A stretch of DNA of 64,000 nucleotides, from NCBI RefSeq assembly GCF_964213995.1, contig NC_135830.1, positions 9,672,001 through 9,736,000 of the forward strand, read 5' to 3'. The notes below the pieces were generated by a model. It was not told the origin of the DNA, ran no database searches, and saw nothing but the letters and a program-made list of their open reading frames with translations. This stretch comes from Mustelus asterias (taxonomy: Eukaryota). The position numbers and the translations under genes are program-made. Positions 1,470 to 60,250 of the stretch are shown in pieces; position 1 is the first letter of the stretch, and the number at the start of each line of letters is the position of its first letter.

Positions 1470-1568
1470 CCTGCCCTGAAGAATTATATGGACTCAAAAT
1501 GTTAACTGTTTCTCTCTGAACAGATGCCGCCGGACCTGCCGGGTTTTTCTGCTTTTCTCCCTGTTTTT
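1470..1568 (+). mobile_element. Degenerate Penelope-like terminal fragment (family 2) with decayed hammerhead
   Basis: CTGAAGAA...GACTC-AAAATGTT followed by TCTCTC..CAGATGC..GACCTGC; homologous to the reverse complement of the 20830-20930 and 44695-44784 copies. Confidence 0.55.
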
Positions 1569-1578
1569 CCCTCTGTAA

Positions 1579-1913
1579 TCATAGAATCATAGAAACCCTA
1601 CAGTGCAGAAGGAGGCCATTCGGCCCATCGAGTCTGCACCGACCACAATCCCACCCAGGCCCTACCCCCACATATTTACCCGCTAATCCCTCTAACCTAC
1701 ACAGGACTCGAAGGGGCAATTTTTAACCTGGCCAATCAACCTAACCCGCACATCTTTGGACTGTGGGAGGAAACCGGAGCACCCGGAGGAAACCCACGCC
1801 GACACAAGGAGAATGTGCAAACTCCACACAGACAGTGACCCGAGCCGGGAATCGAACCCAGGACCCTGGAGCTGTGAAGCAGCAGTGCTAACCACTGTAC
1901 TACTGTGCCGCCC
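1579..1913 (-). mobile_element. HE1/V-SINE-like SINE
   Basis: Near-complete reverse complement of 319-643. Confidence 0.9.
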
Positions 1914-2759
1914 AATCAGAAATTCTTCATGATTTTGAACATCTCGATTAAATAGGAACACACAGAGACTGAGAGAGATACAGAGGAAAGGAGAGACAGA
2001 AAGACTGAGAGAAAAATTGAGAAAGATTTTAAAAAGCAGAAAGTTGAGGTGGTCAAAGATAAAAGCTGAGAAATAGAGGAAACAAGCAATACAGAGAGAA
2101 TGATATAAAATATAAGGGAGCAGGCTATCAGTTCCCAGCTATGGGGAGCAGAGGGAACTCAGTAACTGATCCACAGACACAGCTGGTTATATCTGAGAAT
2201 GGAAACTCTGAACAGAAATAACTGGCTCATTTGTAAATGTCACCACAATGTGACCTGTGAGACTCTGCCCTGACTCTGTGGACAGATATCGGTCACATTG
2301 ACAGATGTTCTCACCAGATTGTTGTGCCTGGATTTATTTTCTGCTCAGAAATGAGAAGTGCGTTTTTGAACCGGCAGCAGAGAAACAGGAAGTTGTGTTA
2401 CCCGAGAATGAAACAGCCGGTGTCAGTTTGATGTTATCACCGTGAACAGTCTTCCTGTCTGTGAGGGTGAACTCACTCTGACAGCATCAAGAACAACCAC
2501 ACAGATTGCTGCCGCTCTCAGCATTACATTCACCTCCATTCCCATTTTAAACAATAAAGAAAGGAGATTATTTGGGTTTTTAACATTCACTGAATTGGGA
2601 GATTGACTGAGGGTCATCACTGGGAGAAATGAGGAGGAATTAGAGAACAAATGAGTTTTCCCAAAGAGGGTTATTAGAAAAGAGGAGATTTAAAGTGAGT
2701 CAGGGCCTGTCAGAGGCAGTGGTAGAGAGAAGCAGGGAGGATTGAATCTCCATCAATTA

Positions 2760-4042: not shown

Positions 4043-5173
4043 TCAGACCTGGATATGATTAACAGCATCAATAAGTGTAGAATCCAAACCTTGCAGTCCC
4101 TTGTGAACTCGCCGGTGTGTTAGCAGGTGGGATGACTGAATAAATCCCTTTCCACAGACATTACAGGTGAATGGCCTCTCCCCAGTGTGAACTCGCTGGT
4201 GTTTCAGAAGATAAGATAAATGAGAAAATCCCTTCCCACAGACAGAGCAGGTAAATGGCCTCTCCCCACTGTGAACTCTCTGATGTGTCAGCAGGTTGGA
4301 TGACTGACTGAATCCCTTCCCACACATGGAGCAGGTGAACGGCCTCTCCCCAGTGTGAACTCGCTGGTGATTCAATAGGTTGGATGAACGAGTGAATCCC
4401 TTCCCACACACGGAGCAAGTGAATGGCCTCTCCTCACTGTGAACCTGCTGGTGTGTCAGAAGGTTGTATGAACGGGTGAATCTCTTCCCACATTCAGAGC
4501 AGGTGAACGGTCGATCCCCTGTATGGAGCTGCTGGTGTATCAGAAGGTTGGATGAATTAATGAATCCCTTCCCACAGTCTGAGCAGGTGAAGGGCCTCTC
4601 CCCAGTGTGAATTCTCTGGTGGTTCAATAGGGCAGGTGGACGGCTGAATCCCTTCCCACACACACAGCAGGTGAATGGCCTCTCCCCAGCGTCAGCAGAT
4701 CCTTTTTGTTTTTAAAGCTCTTCGCACAGTGGGAACAATTAAAAAGTTTGTTATCAGAGTGAACAAGTTGATGTGTCTGCAGGTGGGATGACTGAATGAA
4801 TCCTTTCCCACACAGAGCAGGTGAATGGTCTCTCCCCAGTGTGAATACGTTGGTGCGTCAGCAGATCTTTTTTGCATTTAAAACTCTTCTCACAGTCAGA
4901 ACATGTAAACATTCTCTCATCTGTGTGAACAAGTTGGTGTGTCACAATGTGGGATGAGCGAGTGAATCCCTTCCCACACACAGGGCAGGTGAACGGCCTC
5001 TCCCCAGTGTGAACCCGTCGGTGAGTCAGAAGGTTGTATGAATGGGTGAATCCCTTCCCACAAACAGAGCAGGTGAACGGTCTCTCCCCAGTGTGACTGC
5101 GCCGATGAACTTCCAGTTGTGATGGGAAACCGAATCCTTTCCCGCACTCCACACATTTCCACGGTTTCTCCAT
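4043..5173 (-). pseudogene. C2H2 zinc-finger array A, about 13 fingers, frameshifted (or a truncated 4-finger product)
   Basis: accATG-EKPWKC start at 5173; 4 intact fingers, a 2-nt TG loss near 4810 (TCT GTG TGG GAA) giving a stop at 4754, a second deletion near 4690, then 7 intact fingers (ORF 4043-4663); acceptor TTTTTACAG|GATAT at 5526/5525. Confidence 0.85.
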
Positions 5174-6069
5174 GGTGCCCTTGTGTTTCTCCAGGTTGGA
5201 TGATCAGTTCAAGCCACATCCACACACACAACATACACGTAGTTTCACCCTGCTGTGAACTGTGATGTTTTTTCAGGCTGTGTAACTGGTTAAAGCTCTT
5301 TCCACATTCAGTTCACTGGAACACTCTCACTCGGGTGTGTGTTTGTCTCGATGCTTTTCCGGTCATACTGATGTTTAATTTATTTGCCCACAGGCAGAAC
5401 AGACAAATATTTCTCTTTCTATATTCAAAGACCGATGATATTCAGCTCCGAAGGAACTGAATGACTTTGTCAGATGTGATGTCCGGTTTGAGTTTTCTGT
5501 CTGCCAATCTTTCACTTCCAATATCCTGTAAAAACAGTTTAGAAAAGTCATCACTGTCAGAACACGATACAAACTCTGAACAGACAATTCTAGTTTCTCT
5601 GGAACATTTTTTCCTTTCTTGTTCCCCCAAATCAGTAAATCCCCGTCCCACACACTCTCCCTCCTCCCTGGGCTGAAATCCAAACCCATCTCACCATTTC
5701 TTTCCTCCACTCCCAGTTTTCTCCCTCCCTCTCCTCTATCTGGATTCAGTTCTCCAGCTCCTGTCTGCAGACTGACAATAAAACCAATGGGTCTTACTGG
5801 GGGTGTTGGGGCCTCCAGCGGGTGTTTGTGAATCCTCCCCGCCCACCTCCCAGGGTTTCCTTCCTTCCCAGAGATCAGAGTCCTCATTGATTTGAGGCCA
5901 AAGTGTAACCTCTTATTTATTGTCCCCCTCCCCCATCCTCTGATGTGAACCATCCTCCAGTGGCTGAGCCAGGATGGGGCCGTTAACCTGGGCCTGTTCC
6001 CGGGAGGGAGGGAGGGAGGGAGAAGCCCCGCAGCTGCAAACCAGGGAGCTGACAATGATTCTGAAGGGT

Positions 6070-6500
6070 TTGCGGATCCACAAAGTGTTTCCAAATCCTC
6101 CCAGCCACCGCCTAACGCTGACTCCGCTTCTCCGGGACAAACAAGCGCCAAGGACAGCAATGACACTGCGCATGCTCCACATCACAATGCCCGGGGACTG
6201 ATTGACGGCAGCTCCGGACCAATAGGAAGAGGGGTCGGGGCTGGGGGACCGAACGGGAGCGGCTGGTCCTCCAACCAATCGGAGTGAATGAGGGGCGGGA
6301 CTGGAGGACCGAATGGGAGCGGCTGGTCCTCCAACCAATCGGAATGAATGAGGGGCGGGACCTGAAGCATGCGCAGTGCGGGTGAACCAGATAAACTGTT
6401 GGACTTTAACCTGGTGTTGTTTGACTTGTTGCTGTGTTTACCCCAGTCCAACGCCGGCATCTCCACATCACTGCGGGTAATGGCGACGGACGGCCGGTTT
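6070..6500. promoter_or_regulatory. CpG-rich, probably bidirectional promoter module P1
   Basis: CCAAT at 6219, 6275 and 6335; GGGGCGGG boxes; 60-bp tandem duplication 6241-6361; NRF1-like GCGCATGC at both ends; YY1-like TAATGGCG near 6478; lies between divergent genes A and B. Confidence 0.7.
6384..6471 (+). mobile_element. Penelope-like family 1 3'-terminal fragment inserted in promoter P1
   Basis: Matches the reverse complement of 7145-7220 and 30336-30420; flanked by TGCGGGT direct repeat (6377-6383, 6472-6478); the paralogous promoter near 29900 lacks it. Confidence 0.75.
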
Positions 6501-6742
6501 TAGTTTGGAAGCGAGATCAATACGAGGTAGAGGGCGGCGTGCGGGGAATGATAAATGTGGCGGGTGGGTCGAGAGGCTTTGTAAACATGTAGTTCAAACC
6601 CAAACCCCGGAAATGAACTTCCCGGTTCCCCCCCTTTGTACCAAATGGAGCGGCAGCTTGTAGTGTTAGACCCGGGCTGACTGCCGCCATTGAGGCTGCA
6701 TGTGGGAGGCCGGCAGGGATTGTGATCGGAGAGTGAAGCCCC

Positions 6743-6936
6743 GACGTCACAATGGAATGGCTGAGGGTGTGACGTCACAATGGAATGGGTGAGGGTGTGA
6801 CGTCACAATGGAATGGGTGAGGGTGTGACGTCACCATGGAATGGGTGAGGGTGTGACATCACAATGGAATGGGTGAGGGTGTGACGTCACAATGGAATGG
6901 GTGAGGGTGTGAGGTCACAATGGAATGGGTGAGGGT
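6743..6936. repeat. 28-bp minisatellite, 7 copies, carrying the CRE palindrome
   Basis: Unit GACGTCACAATGGAATGGGTGAGGGTGT starting at 6743, 6771, 6799, 6827, 6855, 6883 and 6911. Confidence 0.95.
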
Positions 6937-6988
6937 TCCAGATGAGCTGAGACTGGGCTGGAGTCGGGCGATGGCACTGACATGTGGC

Positions 6989-7148
6989 CCGGTGGCACAG
7001 TGGTTAGTGCAGCTGCTTAACAGCGCCAGGGACCCGGGTTCAATTCCAGCCTCGGGTCACTGTCTGTGCAGAGTTTCTACATTCTCCCCGTGTCTGTGTG
7101 GGTTTCTTCCGGATGTTCCGGTTTTCCTTCCACAGTCCAAAGATGTGC
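6989..7148 (+). mobile_element. HE1/V-SINE-like SINE, 3'-truncated at a Penelope-like fragment
   Basis: Head and core present up to CAGTCCAAAGATGTGC. Confidence 0.85.
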
Positions 7149-7527
7149 CGGCGTTGGACTGGGGTAAGCACAGTAAGTAATCTCACAACACCAGGTTAAA
7201 ATCCAACAGGTTTATTTGGTAGCACAAGCCACAAGCTTTCAGAGCACTGCCCCTTCATCAGGTGAGTGGGAGTTCTGTTCACAAACAGGGCATATAAAGA
7301 CACAAACTCAATTTACAAGATAATGGTTGGAATACGAGTCTTTAAACGTAATCAAGTCTTAAAGGTACAGACAATGTGAGTGGAGAGAGGGTTAAGCACA
7401 GGTTAAAGAGATGTGTATTGTATCCAGCCAGGACAGTTAGTGAGATTTTGCAAGCCCAGGCAAGTCGTGGGGGTTACAGATAGTGTGACATGAACCCAAG
7501 ATCCCGGTTGAGGCCGTCCTCATGTGT
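7145..7527 (-). mobile_element. Penelope-like element family 1, 3' portion
   Basis: Near-identical to 30345-30727, which is contiguous with a GIY-YIG coding remnant. Confidence 0.8.
7229..7267 (-). ncRNA. Minimal type I hammerhead ribozyme motif
   Basis: Minus strand CUCAC-CUGAUGA-A-GGGGC-AGU-GCUCU-GAAA-GC-UU-GUGG: core boxes, stem II, palindromic AGCU stem III, stem I. Confidence 0.7.
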
Positions 7528-7654
7528 GATTGACAGATCCATGCTCACTGCTTCTTGCCCTGGATGCAGAGAGCTGAAAATTTCCATGCAGGATGCCAGA
7601 CAGATAAATGTCTACATTACTGGAGTAAAAATGTGTGGAATATACAGACCGAAT

Positions 7655-9575: not shown

Positions 9576-9589
9576 ATCTGTAGCCTTAT

Positions 9590-9774
9590 AAAAGCAAATT
9601 ACTGCGGATGCTGGCGTCTGAAGCCAAGGGAGAAAATGCTGGAAAATCTCAGCAGGTCTAGCAGCATCTGTAAGGAGAGAAAAGAGCTGATGTTTCTTGA
9701 CGAAATGACCCTTTGTCAAAGCTCTGAAACATCAGTTCTTTTCTCTCCATCCAGGTGCTGCCAGACCTGCTGAG
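9590..9774. mobile_element. Penelope-like family 2 terminal fragment in inverted (fold-back) configuration
   Basis: ~49-bp inverted arms (9647-9696, 9726-9774) around a decayed hammerhead core (minus strand UUGACAA-GGGUC...GAAA). Confidence 0.65.
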
Positions 9775-10256
9775 AATGGGGAGAGAGTGTGTGGGATGGA
9801 GATTTACAGCTTTTGGGGAATGAGAGAGGAAAGAATGTTCCATAGAAATTGTTCTGAATTTCTATCCTGTACTGACACTGATGACTTTTGGAAACTCATT
9901 TTCAGGATATTGAAAGAGGAATCACAGGCCGAAATCTCAAACGTCATGTCTCGGCGTGACAGAATCGTGTTCCTTGGGACCTCAATATCATCGGACTTTG
10001 AATCCAGAAGGAGAAATGATTGTCCAGTCTGTCGATTTGAAAAGATTTGAAATGTCAGTGTGAGTGAAAAAGCATCAACACACTGCCACACTTGAGTGAG
10101 AGTGTTCCAATGCACTGACTAAAGAGCTTTAACCAGTTACACAGTCTGAATAAATATCACACCATTCACAGCGGGTAGAGACTGTAATCTTGTCCTGTGT
10201 GTGGACGAAGTTTCAACTGATTGTCCACCCAAGAGTGAGGCAAGGAAACCTGCACC

Positions 10257-10931
10257 ATGGAGAAACCATGGAAATGTGGGGACTGTGGGAAGGGATACAG
10301 AGCCCCATGTCTGCTGGAAGCTCATCGGCGCAGCCACACTGGGGAGAGGCTGTTCATCTGCCCTCAGTGTGAGAAGGGATTTAATCAGTTCTCCAGCTTA
10401 CGGACACACCAACGAGTTCACACTGGGGAGAGACCATTCACCTGCTCTCAATGTGGGAAGGGATTCATTCAGTCATCCCACCTGCGGACACACCAGCGAG
10501 TTCACACTGGGGAGAGGCCATTCACCTGCTCTCAGTGTGGGAAGGGATTCACTCAGTTATCCAGCCTGCAGACACACCAGCGAGTTCACACTGGGGAGAG
10601 GCCATTCACCTGCTCTCAGTGTGGGAAGGGATTCACTCAGTTATCCAGCCTGCAGACACACCAGCGAGTTCACACTGGGGAGAGGCCGTTCACCTGCTCT
10701 CAGTGTGGGAAGGGATTCACTCGGTTACCCGACCTGCGGACACACCAGCGAGTTCACACAGGGGAGAAACCATTCACCTGCTCTCAGTGTGGGAAGGGCT
10801 TCACTCGGTCATCCACCCTGCGGACACATCAGCCAGTTCACACTGGGGAGAGGCCATTCACCTGCTCTCAGTGTGGGAAGGGTTTCAGCGTTTCATCCCG
10901 GCTGCTGAGACACCAGCGAGTTCACGAGTGA
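10257..10931 (+). CDS. C2H2 zinc-finger protein B, 8 fingers, no effector domain seen
   Basis: Intact 224-aa ORF, accATGG context, TGERPF linkers; acceptor TTTTCAG|GATAT at 9905/9906; fingers 4 and 5 identical. Confidence 0.9.
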
Positions 10932-18895: not shown

Positions 18896-19694
18896 GTTCA
18901 CAACTCCTTGATTAAAATAAGACACAAGATCCTTCATTCCCCTTCATTATAACTTAAACTTTTTTTTAGCCAACTTCCAAGGCCTGATTTTATCGGAAAC
19001 ATCAAGTCTTTGTTGATTTAAAATCCCAAACATGTTGCCAGCTGCAAAATCTTTGTTCTTTATCTGGGGTTGAGGTGACAACACGATAAAATCCTCACAG
19101 TTCTTCCAAATTCCTCCAGGCTCCGCTTAAAATTTCCACGTTTCACTGGTTCCCATAAATCCTCAATCAAAAACTAAAATAGACACATGAGTTTCCAGGT
19201 GATTTACAAAGAAATGAACTGTCTGCTGAAAGGGTTAACTTTTCTACAGAACCTAAAGGGGTCGGGAGTGAGCAGAAAAAACTTGGCCCACAATTACTTC
19301 ACTTTACATATGATGGGGGTTTTTCTCGGAGGCTAAGTATTGAGCTGAACTCAGTTAATACAAAGATTTGCAAAAGACAGTATACTGGTTAAAGGCATTA
19401 CTTATTGAGAAAGGCAGCTGGGCAGTCCAATTCCTTTCTAAAGTTACAATACATTGGCCATGTAGTTATACTATTTTGAAAGTTCATTTCATCCTCCCAC
19501 TCTGCCATCCTAACTGGATGCTCCAATCATGTTCATGCACAATATTTACCTTGGCCAATAACATCCTATCTTCTGGAAGAATGGGAATTCATTGGTCTGT
19601 AGAATCTGAAAGTTCCTGCCCACTGTTACTTTGCAACATTCACTTACGTAGGTCCAGAGGGTTCAAAGGTTGCTTTCTAACTGACTCTCAGCAC

Positions 19695-20003
19695 GGGCGA
19701 CACAGTGGCACAGTGGTTAGCACTGCTGCCTCACAGCGCCAGGGACCCGAGTTCGATTCCCGGCTTGGGTCACTGTCTGTGTGGAGTTTGCACATTCTCC
19801 CCGTGTCTGCGTGGGTTTCCTCTGGGTGCTCAGGTTTTCTCCCACAATCCAAAGATGTGCCGGTTAAGTGGATTAGACATGCTAAATTGCCCCTTAGTGT
19901 CAGGCGGACTAGCTAGGGTAAATGGGGATAGGGCCTGGGTGGGATTCTGGTTGGTGCAGATTTGATGGGCCAAATGGCCTCCTTCTGCACTGTAGGATTC
20001 TGT
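19695..20003 (+). mobile_element. HE1/V-SINE-like SINE
   Basis: Head, core and tail present. Confidence 0.9.
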
Positions 20004-20829
20004 AACTCTGTGATAACTTCTATTACAGAGCTTATAGGGTTCAAAAGTTCCTTTCCACTGTCTGCTGAGCCATCCCTTATCAGTAAAAAATGAATAATTC
20101 TATTCATTCTAATGTCTGGGAAGCAAGTATTTTCTATAACTCATACTGATAAAAACTGTGTTCTGTGGCTTCACCGTTCTGAAAGAATGTGGCCTGTCTC
20201 ACTCAGCTTTTATCCCATTATGCTTTAGGGCAGTCTGCAGTTTGGCCAAGGTATACATTTTAGTACAAAAAGTATATTTAAATCTGAAATACATGTTTAA
20301 ATTCTCTACCAGTGGTTATATGTGTCTCTATGCAGACAGTACCTTTGTATAATATAAATAAGGCACATTGTGGTCCTTATTCTACATTAGTCTAAGTCAG
20401 TCCACCCTGTTTCAATAGCCTTTATTAGTTTTTAATCTCAAGGTATTCTGAACCCCTCTAACAAAATAACTTTAAAAAATTTAAAGTTTATAATTAGTCT
20501 CAAGTAAGCTTACATTAACACTGCAATGAAGTTACTGTAAAAAATCCCCTCTCTAACAACAAAAGAAACTTGATTTTAAACTTCATCTATGAATTTTTTT
20601 GTTATATTCTCAACCTATTTTAATTTGATCAGTTTTTGTTAGGGATGGGTAATTTCTGTTCTTTATAAACTGGTTCACTCATTTTGTTAATTCTACATGG
20701 GCTCGGAGAATCAGAACCCAGACTCTATCATCCATATCCTTTTTCTCCTTTTGCCACCACTTTCTCTCTGTTTTGCGGGAGGATCGTGGGGATTCCAATC
20801 AGACCGAATCATTTATTATAAAAGTAAAA

Positions 20830-20972
20830 CAAAAACAGAAAATGCTGGAAAATCCCAGCAGATCTGACAGTATCTGTAGGGAGAGAATCGAGCCAACGTT
20901 TCAAGTCTGGAAGACCCTTCATCAGAGCTCCTATGAAGTGTCACCTCGACTCAAAATGTTGGCTCTATTCTC
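20830..20972 (-). mobile_element. Penelope-like family 2 terminal fragment plus a short inverted copy
   Basis: CAGAAAATGCTGGAAAATC...TCAGAGCTC, followed by an opposite-strand decayed copy ending TGTTGGCTCTATTCTC. Confidence 0.7.
20890..20930 (-). ncRNA. Minimal type I hammerhead ribozyme motif
   Basis: Minus strand GAGCU-CUGAUGA-A-GGGUC-UUCCA-GACUU-GAAA-CG-UU-GGCUC; stem I GAGCU/GGCUC, palindromic ACGU stem III. Confidence 0.75.
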
Positions 20973-30090: not shown

Positions 30091-30103
30091 ATAAGTGACA
30101 GAG

Positions 30104-34788: not shown

Positions 34789-35002
34789 GTTTTCCAGCTG
34801 TATCAATCCCTCCCCACAGGAGGAGCAAGGAAACAGATTCTCACCAGTTTCCAACTGAGATGGTCAATTAAATCCCTTCAGATGTACAAATCTTCAACTC
34901 CCAATGAATTGATTGACTCTGTCTGACGTGAGATTTGATTGTCCAGACTGCAAATCCTCCTCTTCTATTTCCTGCAAAATAAGTTTACAAAGAATTACGT
35001 GG

Positions 35003-39008: not shown

Positions 39009-39171
39009 TGGCTGAAGAAATTCTTCCTCATCTCTGTTTTAAAGGATCGTCCCTTTAGTCTGAGGTTGTGCCCTCTGGTTCTAGTTTTTCCTACGAGTGG
39101 AAACATCCTCTCCACGTCCACTCTGTCCAGGCCTCGCTGTACCCTATAAGTTTCAATAAGTTCCTCCTCAA

Positions 39172-39470
39172 CCGTGGCATCCATTCCTGCAGCGTATCAG
39201 GTAGACAACGTTGGCCGAGTTGCAAGAGTAGGTACCGTGTACCAGGTAGATGGTGTTCTCACGTGAGATGATGGCATCCGTGTCGATGATCCGGCACGTC
39301 TTGCAGAGGTTGCTGTGGCAGGGCTGTGTGGTGTCGTGGTCACTGTTCTCCTGAAGGCTGGTTAGTTTGCTGCGGACAATGGTCTGTTTGAGGTTGTGCG
39401 GTTGTTTGAAGGCAAGAAGTGGGGGTGTGGGGATGGTCTTGGCGAGATGTTCGTCTTCATCAATGACATG
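39172..39470 (-). mobile_element. Penelope-like family 1 internal fragment
   Basis: Highly similar to 30955-31150 and extends further upstream. Confidence 0.85.
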
Positions 39471-40069
39471 TCATTGATCAGAACTGAATCCAGACAGAGG
39501 AGAGGGAGGGAGAAAACTGGGAATGGAGGAAAAGAATGTTGGAGATGATGAGATGGGTTTGGATTTCAGCCCAGGGAGGAGGGAGTGTGTGTGGGACGGG
39601 AATTTACAGATTTGGGGGAACAAGCGGAAAAAATGTTCCAGAGAAACTAGAATTGTCTGTTCAGAATTTCTATCCTGGACTGACAGTAGTTTTGTTATCT
39701 TCTTTTGCAGGATATTTGAAGGGGAAGATTTACAGACTGGAAACTCAAATCAAATTTCATACGAATATTTTACAATCATTTGATTTATCAGCACCTAAAC
39801 TCAATTAGCCTTTGAATGTGGAAGGAAAAATGTTTGTTCTGCCTGTGGGAAAAGATTTCAAACATCAGTGTGACTGGAGAAGCATCGAGACACATGCACA
39901 CACTGGAGTGAGACTGTTCCAGTGAACTGACTGTGGAAAGAGCTTTACCCAGTTACGCAGCCTGAAAAACATCACACCATTCACTGTCAGGTGAAACCGT
40001 ACACGCGTTCTGTGTGGACGAGGATTTAACAGATCATCCAACCTGGAGAGACACAAAGACACCAGCACC

Positions 40070-41428
40070 ATGGAGAAACAGTGGAAATGTGAAGACTGTG
40101 GAAAAGTATGTACAACCCCATCTCAGCTGGAAATTCATCGACGCAGTCACACTGGGGAGAGACCATTCATCTGTTGTATGTGTGGTAAAGGATTCGCTCA
40201 GTCATTTAGCCTGGTGTCACACCAGCGAGTTCACACTGAGGACAGACCGTTTAAATGCTCTGACTGTGGGAACAGTTTTAAGAGTTCTGAGGGTTTAATT
40301 CACCATCAACGGGTTCACACTGGCGAGAGACCATTCAATTGCTCTCAATGTGGGAAGAACTTCAGGCAAGTATCTCACCTCACTGAACACCTACGTGTTC
40401 ACACTGGGGAGAAACCCTTCACCTGCTCCATGTGTGGGAAGGGATTCACTTGTGCTTCCCACCTCACTGAACACAAGCGTGTTCACACTGGGGAGAGACC
40501 ATTCAGCTGCTCTCAGTGTGGGAAACATTTCAGGCAGTATTCCACCCTCACTGAACACAAGCGTGTTCACACTGGGGAGAGACCATTCAGCTGCTCTCAG
40601 TGTGGGAAACATTTCAGGCAGTATTCCACCCTCACTGAACACAAGCGTGTTCACACTGGGGAGAGACCATTTGTTTGCTCCTTTTGTGGGAAAGGATTTG
40701 TTAAATCATCCCATCTTTTTAGACACCAGCGCATCCACACTGGAGAGAGACCATTCACCTGCGCTGAGTGTGGGAAGAGATTCACTACAACATCTCATCT
40801 CAGTGAACACCAGAGTCTTCACACTGGGGAGAAACCTTTCACCTGCTGCCTATGTGGCAAGGGATTCACATGTTTATCCTACCTCAGAAGACACAAAATT
40901 GTTCACTCCGATGAGAGACCCTGTAAATGTTCTGACTGTGGGAAGAGGTTTAAAAGCAGAAATGAACTGATGAAACACCAGCCTCTTCACACAGGGGAGA
41001 GGCCGTTTGCTTGCTCTGTGTGTGGGAAGGGATTCACTCAGTCATCACAGCTCAGCAACCATCAGCTTGTTCACACTGATAAGAGACCGTTTAAATGCTC
41101 TGACTGTGGAAAGAGCTTTAAAAGTGCAGGGAATCTGCAGAGACACCAAACCACTCCCACTGAGAGAGGCTGTTCAGCTGCTCTTCATCTGGGAACTGAT
41201 TCACTACTTCATCCCAAATCACTGGACACCTGCGGGTTCACACTGGTGGGAGGCCATTCCTCTGATTTGAGTGTGGGAAGGGATTCACTGTCATCCAGCC
41301 TGCTAAAACACCGGTGCACTCCCACTGAGGGAGCATGTTCACCTGCTCCGTGTGAGACAAGGGATTCAATCAGTTCAGCAGCTTTATTTCACATCAACTT
41401 GTTCAGACCGAAAAATAAATGGTTTTGA
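40070..41428 (+). CDS. C2H2 zinc-finger protein F, 12 intact fingers plus a frameshifted tail from decayed fingers
   Basis: accATG-EKQWKC; 452-aa ORF; fingers 6 and 7 identical; acceptor TTTTGCAG|GATAT at 39710/39711; finger debris continues to ~41620. Confidence 0.88.
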   Translation: MEKQWKCEDCGKVCTTPSQLEIHRRSHTGERPFICCMCGKGFAQSFSLVSHQRVHTEDRPFKCSDCGNSFKSSEGLIHHQRVHTGERPFNCSQCGKNFRQVSHLTEHLRVHTGEKPFTCSMCGKGFTCASHLTEHKRVHTGERPFSCSQCGKHFRQYSTLTEHKRVHTGERPFSCSQCGKHFRQYSTLTEHKRVHTGERPFVCSFCGKGFVKSSHLFRHQRIHTGERPFTCAECGKRFTTTSHLSEHQSLHTGEKPFTCCLCGKGFTCLSYLRRHKIVHSDERPCKCSDCGKRFKSRNELMKHQPLHTGERPFACSVCGKGFTQSSQLSNHQLVHTDKRPFKCSDCGKSFKSAGNLQRHQTTPTERGCSAALHLGTDSLLHPKSLDTCGFTLVGGHSSDLSVGRDSLSSSLLKHRCTPTEGACSPAPCETRDSISSAALFHINLFRPKNKWF

Positions 41429-44580: not shown

Positions 44581-44743
44581 GTGCAGCCATCCGAATAACA
44601 GAAGAAAATATAATCAGAATTAGGAGTATGAGGAGGCCATTCGACCCATCAAGGTTGCTCTGCGATTCAATAAACTCATGGCTCATCTGATCAAGAAAAT
44701 GCTGGAAAATCTCAGGTGTGACAGCATCTGTGGAGAGAGAATA

Positions 44744-44784
44744 GAGCTAAAGTTTCAAGTCTGGATGACCCTTCGTCAGAGCTC
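44744..44784 (-). ncRNA. Hammerhead motif in a Penelope-like family 2 fragment (44695-44784); stem III palindrome mutated
   Basis: GAGCU-CUGACGA-A-GGGUC-AUCCA-GACUU-GAAA-CU-UU-AGCUC. Confidence 0.65.
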
Positions 44785-45398
44785 GTCTGTTCATTGTCAT
44801 AACTCAGTTTTCCTCCAGCCTCTCTCACCCTTAACTCCCTTGGAGGTGAAACTCCCGGTGCGAACACAGCCTTGAATATACTCAATGACCAATCTCCACT
44901 GCCCACTGGGGGAGAGAACTCCACGGGCTACTGGCCCTCTGAGAGATGCAATTGCTCCTCAGCTCTGTCCCTTTTTTTAAACTGTCCCTGCAATTTTTGA
45001 TTCCCTGATATGGGGAAACAGCACTTACCCTGTCAAGTACCCTCAGAATCATATGTGCTTCAGTTAGATCTCCTCTCATTTATCTAAAATCCAATGAGTA
45101 TCGACGCACCCTGTTAACCTTTCCTTAATAAACAAACTTCTTTATGCCAGGAACTATCGTAGTGGACCTTGTCTGAACTGCAACCTATGTCACCATTTCA
45201 ATCTTAAATAATCCTGTGCTAGGAAACAGAAGGAGAGGTGTTATGAATTTATATTCTGGACTAACTAATGGATTTTGGAAACTCCTTTTACGGTTAGAAG
45301 GGGAGGATTTATACACAGCAATCTCAAACCAAGAAAAATGTTTATCTCTTAATCTCTAACCACTGTTGACACATGACTCTTGTAATCTCCTTTCACAG

Positions 45399-45780: not shown

Positions 45781-46234
45781 CATCTGAATTATCGATGCAG
45801 ATTTGATGGGCTGAATAGTCTCTTTCTGCACTGTAGGGGTTCCACGGATTCTTAAAATTCTGTCCGAATTGAAGATAATTTCACTATTTCTGATTTCCGT
45901 ACATCTGGAGATAAATTCCACTCCTTTGTGAGCATTTTGATTGATTTGATGGCTCGCAATGATGTTTCAAATTCATTATTCACTCTAAGCCAGTGAGGAA
46001 AGAGTGTTCCACAGCAACTAGAATTGTCTGTTCTCAGTTTCTGAGCTGTACTGACTGTGATGACATTTGTAAACTCCTTTTACAGGATATTAAAAGGGGA
46101 GGATTTGCCAGAAGAAATCTCAAATGAAACTTCACGTCAAGCTCTGACAGAGTCACTCATTAGGACGGGGAAAACCATCACCCATTTTACCATCAGAGTG
46201 ACAGGAAAAGCACCAAGACGCAGTCACCCACACC

Positions 46235-47083
46235 ATGGGAAAACCATGGAAATGTGGGGATTGTGGAAAGGGATTCAGATCCCCATCTGAGCTGGAAACA
46301 CATCGACGCAGTCACACTGGGGAGAGGCCATTCACCTGCTATCAGTGTGGAAAGAGATTTACTAATTCATCCGACCTGCTTACACACCAGCGAGTTCACA
46401 CTGGGGAGAGGCCATTCACCTGCTCTGATTGTGGGAAGAAATTTAGTATTTCATCCAATCTAGTGAGACACCGTCGAGTTCACTCTGGGGAGAGACCATT
46501 CACCTGCTCAGTGTGTGGAAAAAGATGCAGAGATTCATCCACCCTGCTGGTACACCAGCAAGTTCACACCAAGGAGAGGCTGTTCACTTGTTCTGAGTGT
46601 GGGAAGGGATTCACTCGGTTATCCAGTCTGCAGAGACACCATCGCGTTCACACTGGGGAGAGACCATTCACCTGCTCAGAGTGTGGGAAAGGATTCAGAG
46701 ATTCATCTGACCTGCTGGCACATCAGCGAGTTCACACTGGAGAGAGGCCGTTCATCTGCTCCGTGTGTGGGAAAGGATTTGGAGATTCCTCCACCCTGCT
46801 GACACACCAGCGAGTTCACACTGGGGAGAGGCCGTTCACCTGCTCCAATTGTGGGAGGGGATTCAGTCAGTTAGCCAATCTGCTGAGACACCAGCAAATT
46901 CACAGCGGGGACAGGGAGAGGCCTTTCACCTGCTCGGAGTGTGAGAAGCGATTCAGTGATTTACCTACCCTGCAGACACACCAGCGAGTCCACACTGGGG
47001 AGAGACCATTCACCTGCTCTGACTGTGGGAAGGGATTCACTCAGTCATCCCACCTGCTGAGACACCAGCGAGTTCACAAGTGA
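46235..47083 (+). CDS. C2H2 zinc-finger protein H, 10 fingers
   Basis: accATGG-GKPWKC, intact 282-aa ORF; acceptor TTTTACAG|GATAT at 46085/46086. Confidence 0.9.
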
Positions 47084-48048: not shown

Positions 48049-48049
48049 T

Positions 48050-48393
48050 ATAGAAACATAGAAACCCTACAGTGCAGAAGGAGGCCATTCGGCCCATCGA
48101 GTCTGCACCGACCACAATCCCACCCAGGCCCTACCCCCACATATTTTACCCGCTAATCCCTCTAACCTACACATCCCAGGACTCTAAGGGGCAATTTTTA
48201 ACCTGGCCAATCAACCTATCCCGCACATCTTTGGACTGTGGGAGGAAACCGGAGCACCCGGAGGAAACCCACGCAGACACGAGGAGAATGTGCAAACTCC
48301 ACACAGACAGTGACCCGAGCCGGGAATCGAACTCAGGACCCTGGACCCTGGAGCTGTGAAGCAGCAGTGCTAACCACTGTGCTACCGTGCCGC
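48050..48393 (-). mobile_element. HE1/V-SINE-like SINE
   Basis: Very similar to 1579-1913. Confidence 0.9.
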
Positions 48394-48754
48394 TATAGGG
48401 TAAGTAGATGGGAACGTCGGAATGATAAAGTATAATTTGGGGAAAAAGGTTATCCGCATTGTTGGGAAGAATAGAAAATCAGCATTTTATTTAAATAGAG
48501 AGGCTGCAGAATTCCACAGTGGTCTCCTCGATGAGGGATATACTCAGCATGACCACTGTGACTGTGTCCTGTCGATGTACAGCTGCATTGCAGGGTCAGG
48601 ATCATCTCTGAAGGAGCTGCCGGTTAGTCCCTTTTCCTCAGAGCCTTCACTACAATTAGAGAATGATGACAGCAAACAAAGAGGTCATTCAGCCCATCGT
48701 GTTCACACCCACACCAGCTTTCTGAGAGAGTGACACAGCCAGTCCCACTCCCCA

Positions 48755-49100
48755 ACCTCTCCCTCGGTCACACCCCGGCCTCACCCTCACTCCCTCCCTG
48801 GCCTCTCCCTCGATCCCTCCCTGGACTCTCCCTCGGTCACTCCCCGGCCTCTCCCTCGGTCACTCCCCGGCCTCACCCTCGATCCCTCCCCAGCCTCACC
48901 CTCGATCCCTCCCTGGCCTCTCCTTCGGTCAGTGCACGGCCTCTCCCTCGGTCACTCCCCGGCCTCTCCCTCGGTCAGTGCACGGCCTCTCCCTCGATCC
49001 CTCCCCGTCCTTTCCCTCGGTCACTCCCCGGCCTCTCCCTCGGTCACTCCCGTCCTTTCCCTCGATCCCTCCCCGGCCTCTCCCTCGGCCAGTGCACAGT
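48755..49100. repeat. 23-bp pyrimidine-rich minisatellite, about 15 variant units
   Basis: GGCCTCTCCCTC followed by GGTCACTCCCC, GATCCCTCCCC or GGTCAGTGCAC. Confidence 0.85.
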
Positions 49101-50862: not shown

Positions 50863-52011
50863 TCAGTCCTGGGTGTGATTAACAGCAGCAATAACAGCAG
50901 AATCCAACCCTTGCTGTTGCCTGTGAACTTGCTGGTGTTTCAGCAGGTTGTTTGACTGAGCGAATCCCTTCCCACACATGGAGCAGTTGAACGGCCTTAC
51001 CCCAGTGTGAACTCGCTGGTGTTTCAGCAGATTCTGTTTACTTTTAAATCTCTTCTCACAATCAGAACACTCAAAAGGTCTCTGGTCAGTGTGAACAAGT
51101 TGGTGTGTAGTCAGGTGGGATGACTGAGTGAATCTCTTGCCGCACAGGGGGCAAGTGTAAGGTCTCTCTCCAGTGTGAACTCGCCGGTGTATCAGAAGGT
51201 CAGATGCATCAATGAATTCCTGACAACACACAGGGCAGGTGAATGGCCTCTCCCCAGTGTGAACTCGATGGTGTCTCAGAAGGTGAGCTAATCGAGTGAA
51301 TCCCTTCCCACAGAGAGAGCAGATGAATGGTCTCTCCCCAGTGTGAGTGTGCTGGTGTTTCAGAAGATCCTTTTTGCTTTTAAATGTTTTATCACATTCA
51401 GAACAATTGATAGGTCTCTGATCAGTGTGAACAAATCGATGTTTCAGGAGCTGGGATGAACAAGTGAATCCCTTCCCACACACGGAGCAGATGAACGGCC
51501 TCTCCCCAGTGTGAGTGCGCTGATGAATCAATAAATCCTTTTTACTTTTAAAGTTCTTCTCACAGTCAGAACATTGAAATGGTCTCTGATCAGTGTGAAC
51601 ACTTTGGTGTGTCAGGAGGTGGGATGACTGAGTGAATCCATTCCCACACACGGAGCAGATGAAAGGCCTCTCCCCAGTGTGAGTGCGTTGGTGAATCAAC
51701 AAATCCTTTCTGCTTTTAAAGCTCTTCCCACACTCACAACATTTAACCGGTCTCTGATCAGAGTGAACCTGGTGGTGAGTCCGGAGGTTTGATAAAGCAT
51801 TAAATCCCTTTCCACATTGAAGACAGGTGAATGGCCTCTCACCAGTATGGACATGTTGGTGTGTGTACAGGCTGGATGACTGAGTGAATCCCTTCCCACA
51901 CACAGAGCAGGTGAATGGTCTCTCCCCAGTGTGAATACGTCGATGGGTTTCCAATTCAGATGGGTAATTGAATCCCGTCCCACAGTCCGCACATTTCCAC
52001 GGTTTCTCCAT
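50863..52011 (-). CDS. C2H2 zinc-finger protein J, 13 fingers plus [16 protein letters not shown] tail
   Basis: Intact 382-aa ORF from ATG (MEKPWKC). Confidence 0.9.
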
Positions 52012-52137
52012 GATTATTGACAGGCTATCGGGTGTAGGCGGGATGCAGATTTGAGCTCACTATCAGATCAGCCATGATGTTATTAAATGGCGGAACTGGC
52101 CCGTGGGGCCGAATGGCCTATTGCTGCTCCTTGTTCA
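52012..52137 (+). mobile_element. CR1 3'-UTR fragment inserted at the start codon of gene J
   Basis: GATCAGCCATGAT...AATGGCGGA...GGCCGAATGGCCTA; CATG duplicated at both ends. Confidence 0.75.
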
Positions 52138-53091: not shown

Positions 53092-54240
53092 TTCTTTCCT
53101 CCACTCCCAGTTTTCTCCCTCCCTCTCCTCTGTCTGGGTTCAGTTCTCCAGCTCCTGTTTGCAGACTGACAATAAAACCAATGGGTCTTATTGGCGTGTT
53201 GGGGCCTCCAGCGGGTGTTTGTGAATCCTCCCCGCCCACCTCCCAGGGTTTCCTTCCTTCCCAGAGATCAGAGTCCTCATTGATTTGAGGCCAAAGTGTA
53301 ACCTCTTATTTATTGTCCCCATCCTCTGATGTGAACCATCCTCCAGTGGCTGAGCCAGGATGGGGCCGTTAACCTGGGCCTGTTCCCGGGAGGGAGGGAG
53401 GGAGAAGCCCCGCAGCTGCAAACCAGGGAGCTGACAATGATTCTGAAGGGTTTGCGGATCCACAAAGTGTTTCCAAATCCTCCCTAATGTCCAGCTGCCA
53501 GCTCAGTGCTCCCCGGGCCTGTCCCCACAGTAAAGTGGGGGCCTGCGGCCTAGGCCAGAAGTTGGTGCTGTTTCCAGTGCAGCCGTGGTTTCCATTCCCA
53601 CCCTGTGCTCACAATCTCCTCCCGAACCCGCTCCAACACCATGACTGACACTGAGCATGCTCAGAGCGCACACCCACACCACCTGATGTGGAGATGCCGG
53701 TGTTGGACTGGGTGAGTCACCTGATGAAGGGGCGGAGCTCCGAAAGCTCCTGATTCCAAATAAACCTGTTGGACTTTCACCTGGTGTTGTGACTTCTTAC
53801 TGTGCTCACCACACCTGCGCAGTCCGTTCCCAGGCTCCCCAGCGCCTGATCATCTTTGCGCATGCTCCACTCCCAGCCTGGACCCGCCTCTCATTCACTC
53901 CGATTGGTTGGAGGACCAGCCGCTCCGGCTCAGTCCTCCAGACCCGCCCCCTCTTCCTATTGGTCCGGAGCTGCCGTCAATCAGTCCCCGGGCATTGTGA
54001 TGTGGAGCATGCGCAGTGTCATTGCTGTCCTTGGCGCTTGTTTGTCCCGGAGAAGCGGAGTCAGCGTTAGGCGGTGGCTGGGAGGATTTGGAAACACTTT
54101 GTGGATCCGCAGGCGGGAAGGAGCTCGAGCCGGCGGGTTTTCAATGGCCCGGATCCAGAGCCCGAAAGAAAACCGGAAACATAAATGGATCCGGGCGGTG
54201 AGGCTTCATAAACACCCGGTGTCGGCCAGATGCCGGATCT
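53092..54240. promoter_or_regulatory. Rearranged copy of the P1 promoter region between divergent genes J and K
   Basis: 53092-53484 is a direct match to 5696-6102; ~53885-54111 is an inverted match to 6071-6300. Confidence 0.75.
53714..53756 (+). ncRNA. Hammerhead motif in a Penelope-like family 1 fragment (53684-53810)
   Basis: GAGUCAC-CUGAUGA-A-GGGGC-GGA-GCUCC-GAAA-GC-UC-CUGAUUC; one C-C mismatch at the base of stem I. Confidence 0.7.
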
Positions 54241-54241
54241 C

Positions 54242-54798: not shown

Positions 54799-55274
54799 AT
54801 CCCTCAATTTGCGAGGCAAAATCCTCAGACGTTAACATCTGCCACCTTTATTAAGGGCAAAACCAAACGGATAACCCAAATGGATTTTTGTAAACAGCAG
54901 ACAAAAACATCAGAGATAGAGTTTGTTGTGAAATCAGTGGATTGTAAAACAGGAGGTCAGAGTTACAGCCAGCAACAATTTCTATTTATAACATCATAAA
55001 TCATCCCAGTGCACTTCACACAGGTGGCACAGTGGTTAGCACTGCTGCCTCACAGCGCCAGGGTTCAATTCCCGGCTTGTGTCACTGTGGAGTTTGCATG
55101 TTCTCCCCGTGTCTGCGTGGGTTTCTTCCAGGTACTACAATTTCCTCACGCAGTTGTAGGTGCATTGACCCAAACAGGTGCCGGAGCGTGACAACTAGGG
55201 GAATTTCACAGTAACTTCATTGTAGTGTTAATGTAAGTCTTAATAAGTCTGTGACTAATACATAAACTTTAAGG

Positions 55275-56020: not shown

Positions 56021-56825
56021 AATTAGTCAGCAGAAAGAGAACCAGAAAGCAGAATGGGCCCCGAGACTGAAACCAGGTTTAACTTAGTTAGAGAGGGCGG
56101 TTTAGAGAAACCCCCTTCACAATTTCTCATCAAATCTCTAAACAGTCAGTTCTGGACACAAAGTTACCATCTGCTATTCTGACTGATCGGGTCAGGGTGA
56201 TTCAGATTGATGTTTTCTCATGTTTTTTGAATGAAGTGAATCATCAAAAATACTATCTCTAGTTGTACACATTTTTTAAAAGGATACTGAAATAATTATC
56301 TGTCAATTTATTTGGATTTCAGTTCAGGGAGGAGGGAGAGTGTGTGGGATGGGGATCTGCAACTGTGGGGTTTCGAGAGGAAAAAATTCCAGAGAAACTA
56401 GAATTGTCTGTTGAGAATTTCTATCCTGGACTGTCAGTGATGAGTTTTATTGACGGTTTTTACAGGTATTAGAAGTTGAGGATTGCAGACGGGAATCTCA
56501 AACCAGACATCACATCAAGATCTGACAGAATCACTTGATTCATTAGGACCTGGATATCATCATACTTGGAATGTGGAAGGAGAAATCTTTGTTTGTTTTG
56601 TCTGTGGGAAAAGATTTCAAACATCAGTGTGACTGGAAAAGCACCGAGACACTCACACACCCGAGTGAGAGTGTTCCAGTGAACTGACTGGAAAGAGCTT
56701 TAACCAGTTACACAGCCTGAAAAAAACATCACCATTCACAGAGGGGAGAAACTGTACACGTGTTGTGTGTGTGGACGAGGCTTCAACTGATCATCAACCT
56801 GGAGAGAGATGATGACACCGACACC

Positions 56826-57498
56826 ACGGAGAAACCGTGGATATGTGGGGACTGTGGGAAAGCATTCACTTGCCCATCCAAACTGGAAACTCATCGACGC
56901 ACCCACACTGGGGAGAGACCTTTCACCTGCTCCATGTGTGGGAAGGATTTCACTCAGTCATCCAACCTGGTATTACATCAGTGTGTTCACACTGGAGAGA
57001 GGCCGTTCAGCTGCTCTGTGTGTGGGAAAAGGTTCATTCAGTCATACAATCTAGCGTTACACCAGCGGGTTCACACTGGGGAGAGGCCGTTCACCTGCTC
57101 CGTGTGTGGGAAGGGATTCATTAATTCCTCTAACCTAGTGGCACACCGGCGAGTTCACACCGGGGAGAGGCCATTCACCTGCTCCGTATGTGGAAAGGGA
57201 TTCACTCGGTCATCCCACCTATTGACACACCAGCTTATTCACACTCGGGAGAGACCTTTTAAATGCTCAGACTGAGAAGTGCTATAAAAGTTCTGGTGAA
57301 CTGATGTCCCATCAACGTGTTCACACTGATGAGAGACCGTTCAGGTGCTCTCACTGTGAGGCTGGGTTCAGGCGATCATGTAGCCTCATTGTCCATCAGC
57401 GAGTTCACACCGGAGAAAGGCCATTCACCTGCTCCGAGTGTGGGAATGGATTCACTCAGTCATCCTACCTGCTTAAACACCAAAGAATTCACAAGTAA
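56826..57498 (+). pseudogene. C2H2 zinc-finger array K, 8 fingers, start ATG>ACG and frameshift
   Basis: accACG-GAGAAACCGTGG at 56826; 5 intact fingers, then a 2-nt loss (GAC TGA GAAG) giving a stop at 57275, then 2 more intact fingers; acceptor at 56465/56466. Confidence 0.82.
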
Positions 57499-60114
57499 CA
57501 CAGTGATTGGAATCTGCTGTTAATCCTGTCCATGACTGTAATATGTTCATTGGGTTTGTTTTTGTTGATGTTAATGAACTCCAGCCAGTTGTACTGTTTA
57601 ACATTCTGAATAAAAGTCAAATAAATTATCTTTGTGTTCAATGCTATGTTGAATCTTTTTAATATCATCAACACAATTGAATTCCTTTTGTGGTGCTCTC
57701 CCGTTGATCTTCCTCTATCTTCACCTCCCCACAAGTGCTCATGGAGGAGAAACTCATGATCTTCTTTGTCACTAGGATTGGGACAATCCAATCAGCTGCC
57801 TCTGCTGCTTCCCTCCTTCCCCTAACCCACTGAACCAAACCTCCTCTAACGCTCCCTTTTGCCTGCGCTCTGAACTCTGAACTCTGATCTTTCTGCAGTT
57901 TCTCTCCCACCTCCCCTCGTGTCCTCTTAGAGCTCATCTTGTCGATGAGTCCCATCTCCTGATCCTTCAGTCCTATTCCCACTGAACTACTGACAGCACG
58001 ACTTCTCCATAATAGCTGCTATTGTTAATAGCTCCCTCCTTCAAATCCAATATCATCATCCACTTCTCTCCAAAATATCCTTGACACATGCCCTTGTAAA
58101 CTACCATTCAATCTCCCCTTCCTCATATTGTGAATTGTTGTACCTTTCTCACAGGTGTATAGAAAAGTTTATTTTGTTTGTTCAGAATCTGTGGAATTTT
58201 GTGCCTTTATTCACTTGTGAAGTATCTTGAATATCCACCTTTATCTATTTTATACAAACTCATCCAAATCTAAAAGCAGTTTAGTGGGAATTGGGTGAAT
58301 GGAACAGAAGGTGGGTCTCCTGGACACGATGAGCTGCTGAGAGGAGATAGAGTGTTACAATCCCAGCTGATGTTACTATTGGACAGGAAGTCCCAGAATA
58401 TAACCCTGGCTCAAGTGACCATAACTTTTACCTTTTTGTTTTAGAAATGTGGATGAACAGAGTCACTGGACGGCCAATTAGCTTTTAACAAAACATCTAT
58501 TAAACATGAAAAGATTGACAATAACTGAAGACTTTTTCATCCCACCCTCCTCCTGCTGCAGCGAACACAGTGAGGGAGCTCCCTCTTGTGGTGCTGTGAG
58601 ATAATTGGTCTCTACCTGGGAGATCACTGAATTCTCAGATGACGAAAGGATCTTATTGGAGAATTGTGCTGCCGTAATTTTCTTGTTGCTATTATTTTTC
58701 ATTTTAATATACTTTAATACAGATGGACCTATTCACAAATCGATAACAATCTCAGAAACAGTAACAGGCAAACTCGCAGACACACAAACACATTGACAGA
58801 CACTGGGAAACTCACAAACATATCTCTAGATATACATAATCTCAGACAAACATCTACAGGCAAACTGGCAGACAAACACATTCACAGACATGCAGACGAA
58901 AAAATATTCAGACTTACACAAACACATGCACAGACATACACATTATCACACACACTCTCACAAACACGGAGACTGAGACCATGAAGGGTTGATGTTAATG
59001 TCATTCTAATATCCACCTGCTGGACACTAAAATAATAACAGAAGCAAATCTGAGGCTCAGTGTGTGGGTTTTACTATGAAATGAGATAATGTATAAATAT
59101 ATCCCCTATTGCTCAGGGTGGGAGTGGAATTGATGATTTATCTGCTGTCTGTGATTGCCTTGAACAAATAGTAAATTGTAGAGATTATAAAGTTTGAATT
59201 GTAATATCTAATGGTGTAAAGTATCTGGGAGCAGAGTGGATGTGGTAAAGGCTGGAATACAGACTGGGGGAATGAGGGTGAAACTGCTGTGCTGAGTGAA
59301 TGGTTCTTGTTTTAGGGAGGGATGGATGGAGAGAGAGAGAGAGAGAGGAAGTGTGAGGTGGATTGTGGGAGAGATGGATGGATGGGGGTGAATGTGAGAA
59401 GCTGAAGTTTACATTTGAAGAGGTTCCCAGTGCCTCTGAGCAGCTGAACTGGGGAAGCTTTTGGCCAGACTGTGCTGCTGCTGCTGCAGTTTCCCCTGCT
59501 GGCCACGAAGGAACGCTGTAACTCTACCGGCCATTGCTGTTCCCACTGTCACCTCTTGCCGGCTCCAGCCCGCCCGCAGCTCATACAGGAACTCACTGAC
59601 TACAGGAACTCACTGACCAGGAGCGGAGTGGAATTGGAGGTGATCAATGATTCCAAAATGAAACTGGATGGATGATTGAAATTGATTTGAAGGAAATCAA
59701 CTTGCAGGGGAATTGGAATCTAGAAGGGGAATAGGATTGACAGGATTGCTCTACAGAGAGTCGTCATGGACTCGAGTTGCCAACTCGACCTCTAACTATT
59801 GCAGAACATGTTGTAGGAATGAAAGAAAACAGATGCTCACAGGGTTGTAAAAGGATAGAACTGAGTCTAAAACACCAATATGTTTTCATGGTCGTACATT
59901 TAAAATCAGATTATTGGAGATTAAAACTAAACCAATGGCATTGCTAAAGATGTTGGTGTTTCTCCTGCGAAGGTTGCAGCAAAGGAGGAAGCTTGTCAGA
60001 AATCAGTACCTTCTAATGTATTTATGATGGGTGAAAATAGAGACATGAGGGATTATGAAGGAATTGTAAATTCCACCTTGTCCTATACAGTATATAACAC
60101 ATTTTTCTTCTCTT

Positions 60115-60250
60115 TAGTTCTGAAAGAGTCACACAGATTTGAAACATTATCTCTATTTTCTTCCTACAGTTGTTGCCAAACCTGCAGAGTTTTTCCAGCA
60201 TTCTCTGTTTTTGTTTCAGAATCCATCATCCACAGAATTTTGCTTTTATG
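60115..60250 (+). mobile_element. Old Penelope-like family 2 terminal fragment
   Basis: CTGAAAGAGTCACACAGATTTGAAACATT...TTTTCCAGCATTCTCTGTTTTTG. Confidence 0.5.

Follow-up and report, generated by a model that had tools for sequence, protein, structure and literature searches.

A 64,000-nt window of Mustelus asterias contig NC_135830.1 (GCF_964213995.1, positions 9,672,001–9,736,000 of the forward strand), which is shark-derived DNA, contains a C2H2 zinc-finger gene cluster, reverse transcriptase (RT) fragments of the long interspersed nuclear element (LINE) type, other repeats, and seven loci of a short hammerhead-bearing repeat, designated family 2, which is the subject of this report. A neighbouring autonomous-type Penelope element, designated family 1, was used as an internal control. 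The seven copies listed in a first-pass annotation of this DNA (1470, 9590, 20830, 28733, 30277/31170, 44695 and 60115) were all detected at those positions by blastn. A profile built from the copies recovered these seven loci and, in addition, two inverted arms at E values of 5e-30 to 1e-7, scores that are partly circular as the copies themselves went into the profile. No further match below E 0.6 was obtained in the window, and the best match in a reversed-window control had an E value of 0.15. Each locus comprised a Penelope-type minimal hammerhead and ~60 nt, with or without a 35–40-nt extension. Pairwise identity among the copies was 56–86%, indicating that they are old. The copies at 20830 and 44695 and the split copy (30277/31170) formed one group and those at 9590 and 28733 another; 60115 and 1470 (the most diverged, 56–65% identical to the others) were more distant.

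Offsets are counted from hammerhead core position 3. A descriptor of the minimal type-I hammerhead matched four sites in the window, two per family, and none in 30 shuffled windows; an Rfam scan of the window matched no hammerhead family. The hammerhead motif quoted for family 2 in the first-pass annotation was valid as a consensus, but copy by copy only two of the seven loci passed the descriptor (cores 44779 and 20925). The other five were recognisable relics with core or helix damage: those at 9590 and 28733 had U3-A8 plus a damaged helix II or GAAA box, those at 1470 and 60115 were diverged, and that at 31170 began within the core. The motif fitted the minimal hammerhead of Penelope-like elements (PLEs) in its bulged base after A9, G10.1-C11.1, palindromic 15.2–16.2 and U3-A8 variant (compared with PMC4209133). 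The variant occurred in two window copies, and A8 was also implied by four translated copies from elsewhere (see below), in which U3 is not visible. The putative cleavage site lies at ~+30, and the inserts run across it rather than beginning there. Self-cleavage, if any, would probably take place as a dimer or with the help of a protein.

Three loci were solo copies. The copy at 1472–1561 (+ strand) extended from core −4 to a short 3′ end at +85 and was flanked by an exact 9-bp target-site duplication (TSD; 1463–1471 and 1562–1570), which is less secure, being T-rich and resembling the element's own 3′ end. The copy at 28733–28828 (− strand) started at core −3/−4, had a short end at +92, the U3-A8 variant and a 2-nt deletion in the GAAA box, and was flanked by the exact 12-bp TSD (28721–28732 and 28829–28840) noticed in the first pass. 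Among 5000 random flank pairs, exact matches of at least 9 bp were found in four and of at least 12 bp in three. The copy at 44694–44780 (− strand; core 44779, descriptor-positive) had a short end at +85 and a 13-bp TSD with two mismatches (44681–44693 and 44781–44793), the last 4 nt of which equal helix I (microhomology). It sat inside a repeated LINE-like 3′ end, and this host repeat was uninterrupted at ~52062 and ~61077, where the duplicated motif occurred once only, giving empty-site support for the TSD.

The locus 30277/31170 was a single copy, whose 5′ piece (31164–31206, − strand) started inside the core at +1 and whose 3′ piece (30276–30334, − strand) had a short end at ~+94; it was split by an 829-bp family-1 insertion (30335–31163) with an 8-bp TSD (31164–31171 and 30327–30334), placed just past the family-2 ribozyme. 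The longest copy, at 60066–60245 (+ strand), had a decayed hammerhead, a tail to +125 and a 13-bp TSD with two mismatches (60053–60065 and 60246–60258), and appeared to reach 54 nt upstream of core 60120. Chance produced a TSD match of this type 44 times among 3000 random flank pairs and 79 times when the upstream flank was shuffled 3000 times (1.5–2.6%). In all, TSDs were found at four loci (12 bp exact, 9 bp exact, and 13 bp with two mismatches twice), and the remaining three had no convincing one (none or degraded).

The other two loci (9590 and 20830) carried head-to-head inverted arms. At the first, a sense arm with tail (9589–9725, − strand; start at core −6, 3′ end at +130, U3-A8 core variant, GUC site, broken helix II) adjoined an inverted arm (9726–9775, + strand) running from the GAAA box to ~+75 and identical to the sense arm at 45 of 51 positions; a TSD was looked for here and none was found. 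At the second, a descriptor-positive sense arm (20819–20930, − strand; core 20925), with a possible degraded TSD and a 3′ end resembling a tail that carries an internal deletion, faced an inverted arm (20933–20972, + strand) matching it at 31 of 40 positions, with the junction within the helix-I/core palindrome. The earlier statement that the repeat inserts alone thus does not hold for every copy, two being paired with an inverted arm and one being split by family 1. The pair at 9647–9775 would fold into a long hairpin and probably gives rise to false microRNA calls or to double-stranded RNA; Rfam matches to several microRNA families, all below the gathering score, arose there from the inverted pair. 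Annotators should be warned that such pairs mimic microRNA hairpins and give spurious open reading frames (ORFs) in protein sets.

Translated copies were also found outside the window. Protein sets were searched with three-frame translations of the copies, giving 23 matches (P0023–P0045), which were then mapped to the window copies. After P0038 (a repetitive false positive) and P0034 and P0039 (short exon-like fragments) had been dropped, 20 were left, and 19 were used for the 5′-end count, since a stop hides that end in P0043. By our own reading, 13 of the 20 were head-to-head pairs, and the tail was confined to one arm in all eight pairs with both outer ends readable. No external match contained an RT or GIY-YIG domain, and none linked an ORF start inside the element to an RT. 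About 45–70 nt past the core, each window copy has a pyrimidine tract followed by CAG and ATG, resembling a splice acceptor; in P0034 and P0039 the element-like stretch begins at that internal ATG, suggesting exonisation or gene-model artefacts.

Family 1 was represented by pieces at 30335–31163, 7146–7528, 53684–53807, 35089–35162, 6386–6470 and 39171–39470. The first (− strand, 5′-truncated) retained the GIY-YIG end and the 3′ untranslated region (UTR) and had a TATA-like box (core −37), a hammerhead of its own (core 30463) and a tail. Its GIY-YIG-like frame (30866–31168) matched shark proteins, the best (92%) from Mustelus asterias, and some of the longer matches had an RT domain; these GIY-YIG fragments were missed by Pfam and identified by their homologues. 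A CxxxxCxxC motif lies ahead of the nuclease, as described for the Neptune and Nematis clades. In a control copy of short anatomy (53684–53807, + strand), an inverted tail piece preceded a sense arm that spanned core −4 to +86. Family-1 5′ starts were at ~−700, −270, −4, +21 and +45 and its 3′ ends at +86, +115 and +127. Family 1 resembles family 2 in the order of parts and in end offsets, including a copy that has an inverted tail piece and begins at core −4; it differs from family 2 in having another ribozyme and downstream sequence and in often retaining the 3′ UTR and GIY-YIG region.

Family 2 shows a minimal type-I hammerhead, an optional 3′ tail, head-to-head arms with a palindromic junction and short TSDs. 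Because the tail is optional and one-sided in inverted pairs, the junctions are palindromic, the TSDs are of this size and family 1 has the same geometry, the copies were read as solo pseudo-long terminal repeats (pLTRs). The tail, its one-sidedness in inverted pairs, the palindromic junctions and the TSD size are described marks of Penelope insertion (PMC3846280, PMC8557442, PMC11167929). It is thus very probable that family 2 consists of solo pLTRs that belong to a second Penelope-like family and were inserted by a Penelope RT/GIY-YIG protein. The first-pass annotation had proposed heavily truncated pLTR ends on ribozyme type alone; the assignment is now backed as well by the tail, the inverted arms, the 9–13-bp TSDs and the geometry of the RT/GIY-YIG neighbour, whereas "heavily truncated" does not match the pile-up of ends at helix I described below. 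Penelope membership is incomplete in that no ORF was found in cis: RT and GIY-YIG coding sequence was present at none of the seven loci nor in the protein matches, tblastn with four shark Penelope proteins gave no better than E 0.70 at family-2 copies (in line with the earlier remark that they lack coding sequence) and placed RT/GIY-YIG only at family 1, and no partial-tandem pLTR-ORF-pLTR arrangement occurred in the 64 kb. Templates that lack an ORF may have been mobilised in trans. A search of a phage collection gave no match.

Two other identities were rejected. A retrozyme-like nature, also suggested in the first pass, was abandoned for this window, where the profile matches included no head-to-tail unit and the copies span the cleavage site. 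A tRNA-derived short interspersed nuclear element (SINE) was rejected on the grounds that ARAGORN found no tRNA gene in the window, no tRNA-like Rfam match overlapped any copy, and the copies begin with the ribozyme.

The 5′ ends of the seven loci were at −4, −6, ~−5, −3/−4, −1 to −5, +1 and −54. Six of the seven thus began at core −6 to +1, as had been remarked of most copies in the first pass, the exception being 60115. In the external copies, 12 of 19 5′ ends lay at ~−6 to +6, six at +8 to +21 and one at +36 (resolution ~3 nt), and no sequence upstream of −6 was shared among these 19. Five external copies could be read antisense past the boundary and had no common continuation; in P0024 and P0027 the boundary is preceded by a few residues whose codons might form a pyrimidine tract, leaving room for a short extension. 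At the other end, the single fixed downstream segment described earlier gave way to two 3′ classes 35–40 nt apart (+85, +85, +92 and +94 versus +125 and +130; 20830 was ambiguous). The 5′ wall is not caused by ribozyme cleavage, since the cleavage site lies at ~+30, and stalling at the ribozyme would be expected to act on its 3′ side.

The 5′ pile-up is unlike random truncation. If the copies were ordinary 5′-truncated ends of an autonomous Penelope element, with the clustering due to small-sample and detection effects, six of seven ends within 10 nt would have an upper-bound probability of ~1e-4 (ends assumed uniform over 100 nt, not steeply decaying lengths), and no profile match began 3′ of the ribozyme except one inverted arm and the split piece. 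Measured from the ribozyme, the ends of six of the seven window loci and 12 of the 19 external copies lie at or near helix I, unlike the random scatter along a long element that the first-pass annotation had named as its counter-case. In favour of truncation, PLE copies are typically heavily 5′-truncated (PMC8557442; PMC8969392), family-1 starts are scattered from ~−700 to +45, and one family-2 copy reaches upstream. Similar shark and skate repeats presumably run on into a longer 3′ UTR. On balance, we regard ordinary truncation as very unlikely.

A SINE-like Penelope parasite would explain the wall differently: one or more short masters of ~135 nt, spanning the hammerhead and the tail and driven by a promoter that is either internal or the host's, would be mobilised in trans. 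The wall at six of seven window loci with none of 19 external copies passing −6, and the lack of a linked RT or GIY-YIG in any protein match, agree with this, and non-autonomous PLE derivatives have been described (PMC8557442; 10.64898/2026.07.22.740005). On the other hand, 60115 carries promoter-like upstream sequence, no tRNA gene was detected in the window, which has no tandem units either, and the boundary is common to several subfamilies and to the unrelated family 1, pointing to a common mechanism rather than one master. A short master is therefore unlikely in our view.

Sequences ahead of the wall could be inspected in the upstream-bearing copies of both families, and in these a TATA-like box lies ~25–33 nt before it. 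In 60115 the box (60091–60098, + strand; core −29) matches TATAWAWR at seven of eight positions and, with the pyrimidines that follow it, is a candidate pLTR promoter or splice acceptor; in family 1 (30463–30502 and 7261–7300; core −37 to −39) seven of eight positions match on both strands. The background for such a match was 3.5% of 12-position windows, with the search range picked after the data had been seen. Transcription starts ~30 nt past a TATA box, and hence would start near +1 in 60115 and −7 in family 1, close to the observed walls. The two-strand match in family 1 resembles a box described as bidirectional in a rotifer pLTR, and a putative TATA box was reported in a rotifer pLTR (both PMC3846280). 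D. virilis pLTRs were reported to contain a promoter (PMC2377424).

These data suggest a mechanism in which helix I marks the start of the transcript and reverse transcription, primed internally, proceeds to the RNA 5′ end and runs off it; we hold it tentatively, at close to but short of an even chance. Driven by a pLTR promoter, the RNA would begin at hammerhead helix I or slightly within it. As in the anole element PAc, for which internal RT initiation on uncleaved RNA has been shown in vitro (PMC11167929), reverse transcription would begin internally at ~+90 or ~+128, giving the short and tailed 3′ ends. As the inserts read through the cleavage site, the template was uncleaved or re-joined RNA. 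With priming in the 5′ pLTR, the RNA 5′ end would be reached after 95–135 nt, and this cDNA, resembling a strong-stop product, would be integrated with a 9–13-bp TSD. The cDNA end may often fold back at a ribozyme palindrome, which would give the head-to-head arms seen. Short copies, which lack the TATA-like box, would be dead ends. The template role would fall to full-length elements or to truncated copies that keep the promoter, such as 60066–60245, the latter served in trans.

Several points weigh against this account of the family and its boundary. The TATA argument comes from one old copy of a different subfamily with an imperfect TSD, and the flank of 31170, which is unrelated, has a further match of seven in eight at −58. 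In D. virilis Penelope, transcription starts ~125 nt upstream of the core (PMC2377424; PMC4209133; same numbering assumed). No parent ORF for family 2 was found in the window, the protein searches or a genome contig collection, although an RT- and GIY-YIG-bearing parent was what the first pass had proposed to look for; the contig search gave no match apart from three bacterial 23-mer matches ending at the seed, taken as chance. Sharing of downstream sequence between families 1 and 2 was not significant (29 of 1000 shuffles scored as high in the best of eight comparisons). The external sample is biased to open frames and under-samples copies with upstream sequence. Covariation was not above that of shuffles (52 of 500 at best, with three rows misaligned), and minimum free energy folding of 11 of 12 segments was no better than that of shuffles (the exception being 28733, z −2.2), a measure that carries no information on a ribozyme whose helix III is all but absent.

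A further point of this kind leads to another explanation, namely that a 3′ splice site lies at helix I, as in D. virilis Penelope, and that spliced or splicing-intermediate RNAs were the templates. Downstream of its TATA-like box, 60115 has a run of pyrimidines that closes with AG at core −3, which resembles the D. virilis intron end mapped to helix I (PMC4209133). A common first exon would then be expected and none was seen, and PLE genomic copies generally retain introns (PMC8557442), making this explanation highly improbable.

The inverted arms bear on a different possibility, that cDNA of a long template snaps back at palindromes located in helix I or III, the core or loop II, after which it is either extended into an inverted arm or trimmed at the hairpin tip. 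The junctions at 20930 and in P0028, which repeats the same fold-back, lie within the helix-I palindrome, others fit the core, loop II and helix III palindromes, and 60115, the sole copy passing the wall, does not have the palindromic helix-I tetramer. Palindromes at inverted pLTR junctions have been read as self-priming (PMC3846280). Yet the solo copies 1470, 28733 and 44695, which have a TSD and no inverted arm, stop at the same place, a 4–8-nt palindrome is unlikely to halt nearly every cDNA, and two family-1 copies extend 270 and 700 nt beyond their own hammerhead. Fold-back as the cause of the wall is accordingly somewhat unlikely, and run-off at a transcription start remains our preferred reading.

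If transcription does start at helix I, a more doubtful extension may be considered, in which Penelope elements make strong-stop-like cDNA, primed within the 5′ pLTR ~90–130 nt downstream of the start, whose failed jump to the 3′ copy leaves a promoterless solo pLTR and whose successful jump yields the partial tandem. Any truncated copy retaining the promoter would then be an ORF-less donor, giving a SINE-like family without a dedicated master, and the start site and the two priming sites could be read off directly from thousands of such copies in sharks. How pLTR tandems are rebuilt and what the ribozyme does were described as open (PMC2377424, PMC8557442, PMC11167929). The 5′ boundary at helix I is the part worth following and could make this mechanistic question testable; seven copies in 64 kb imply a large genomic sample for comparing ends with start and priming sites.

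The surroundings of family 2 comprised nine or more C2H2 zinc-finger frames arranged in tandem and lying on both strands (4043–5203, 10239–10931, 22425–23153, 33583–34863, 39995–41428, 46202–47083, 50863–52056, 56721–57275 and 63183–63998), a dense cluster in which similar upstream segments recur around the frames. A high-copy repeat with a tRNA-like head (305–512, 1702–1870, 19687–19894, 26181–26388, 48177–48345, 55026–55154 and others) had an end shared with LINE 3′ ends and, at 55026, a below-threshold Rfam match to mascRNA; it is probably a shark SINE. A 188-aa frame with a Cys/His motif (29059–29625) gave nothing above the Pfam cut-off and presumably resembles the C-terminal part of a Tx1/L1-type ORF2. 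Minisatellites (28 bp and 23 bp) and, adjoining the split copy, a ~92-bp duplication were located at 6715–6966, 48702–49097 and 30096–30275.

Dispersed PLE hammerheads and solo pLTRs are already known, and family 2 is an expected kind of repeat. No report of this shark family or of a 5′ wall at helix I was found in the literature searched, which lay outside subscription journals and Repbase, so that the family may well be catalogued. The supplement of PMC8557442 contained no shark names, and the text of Table S1 and Figure S3 of PMC4209133 no cartilaginous fish.

Non-LTR retrozymes resemble family 2 in being non-coding and dispersed as monomers with a type-I hammerhead, and in their proposed pLTR origin and mobilisation by PLEs; metazoan retrozymes have been reported in one chondrichthyan genome, and are defined by head-to-tail repeats with at least two hammerheads yielding circular RNA (PMC7229834; 10.64898/2026.07.22.740005). 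Shark copies, unlike these, are single or head-to-head and cannot release unit-length RNA. The minimal type-I hammerheads of metazoan PLEs share the core, the bulge, G10.1-C11.1, the near-absent palindromic helix III and U3-A8 with family 2, and are likewise mostly single dispersed motifs, read as truncated PLEs (PMC4209133).

The pLTRs of Adineta vaga Penelope elements share head-to-head inversion, the junction palindrome, an optional 30–40-bp tail at one end, TSDs of comparable length and solo occurrence (PMC3846280; PMC8557442). In contrast to them, the shark module is only 90–135 nt long, has its 5′ end at hammerhead helix I and has no linked ORF, and several of the shark solo copies are flanked by a TSD of their own, which was absent from several solo pLTRs of A. 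vaga (PMC3846280). With PAc (Poseidon, Anolis carolinensis), family 2 shares a hammerhead followed by internal RT starts that define the tail, and an uncleaved template. The PAc ORF begins within the ribozyme, while none was found for the shark family, and RT starts past the cut are at 85–92 nt in PAc versus ~55–65 and 95–100 nt in the shark copies (PMC11167929).

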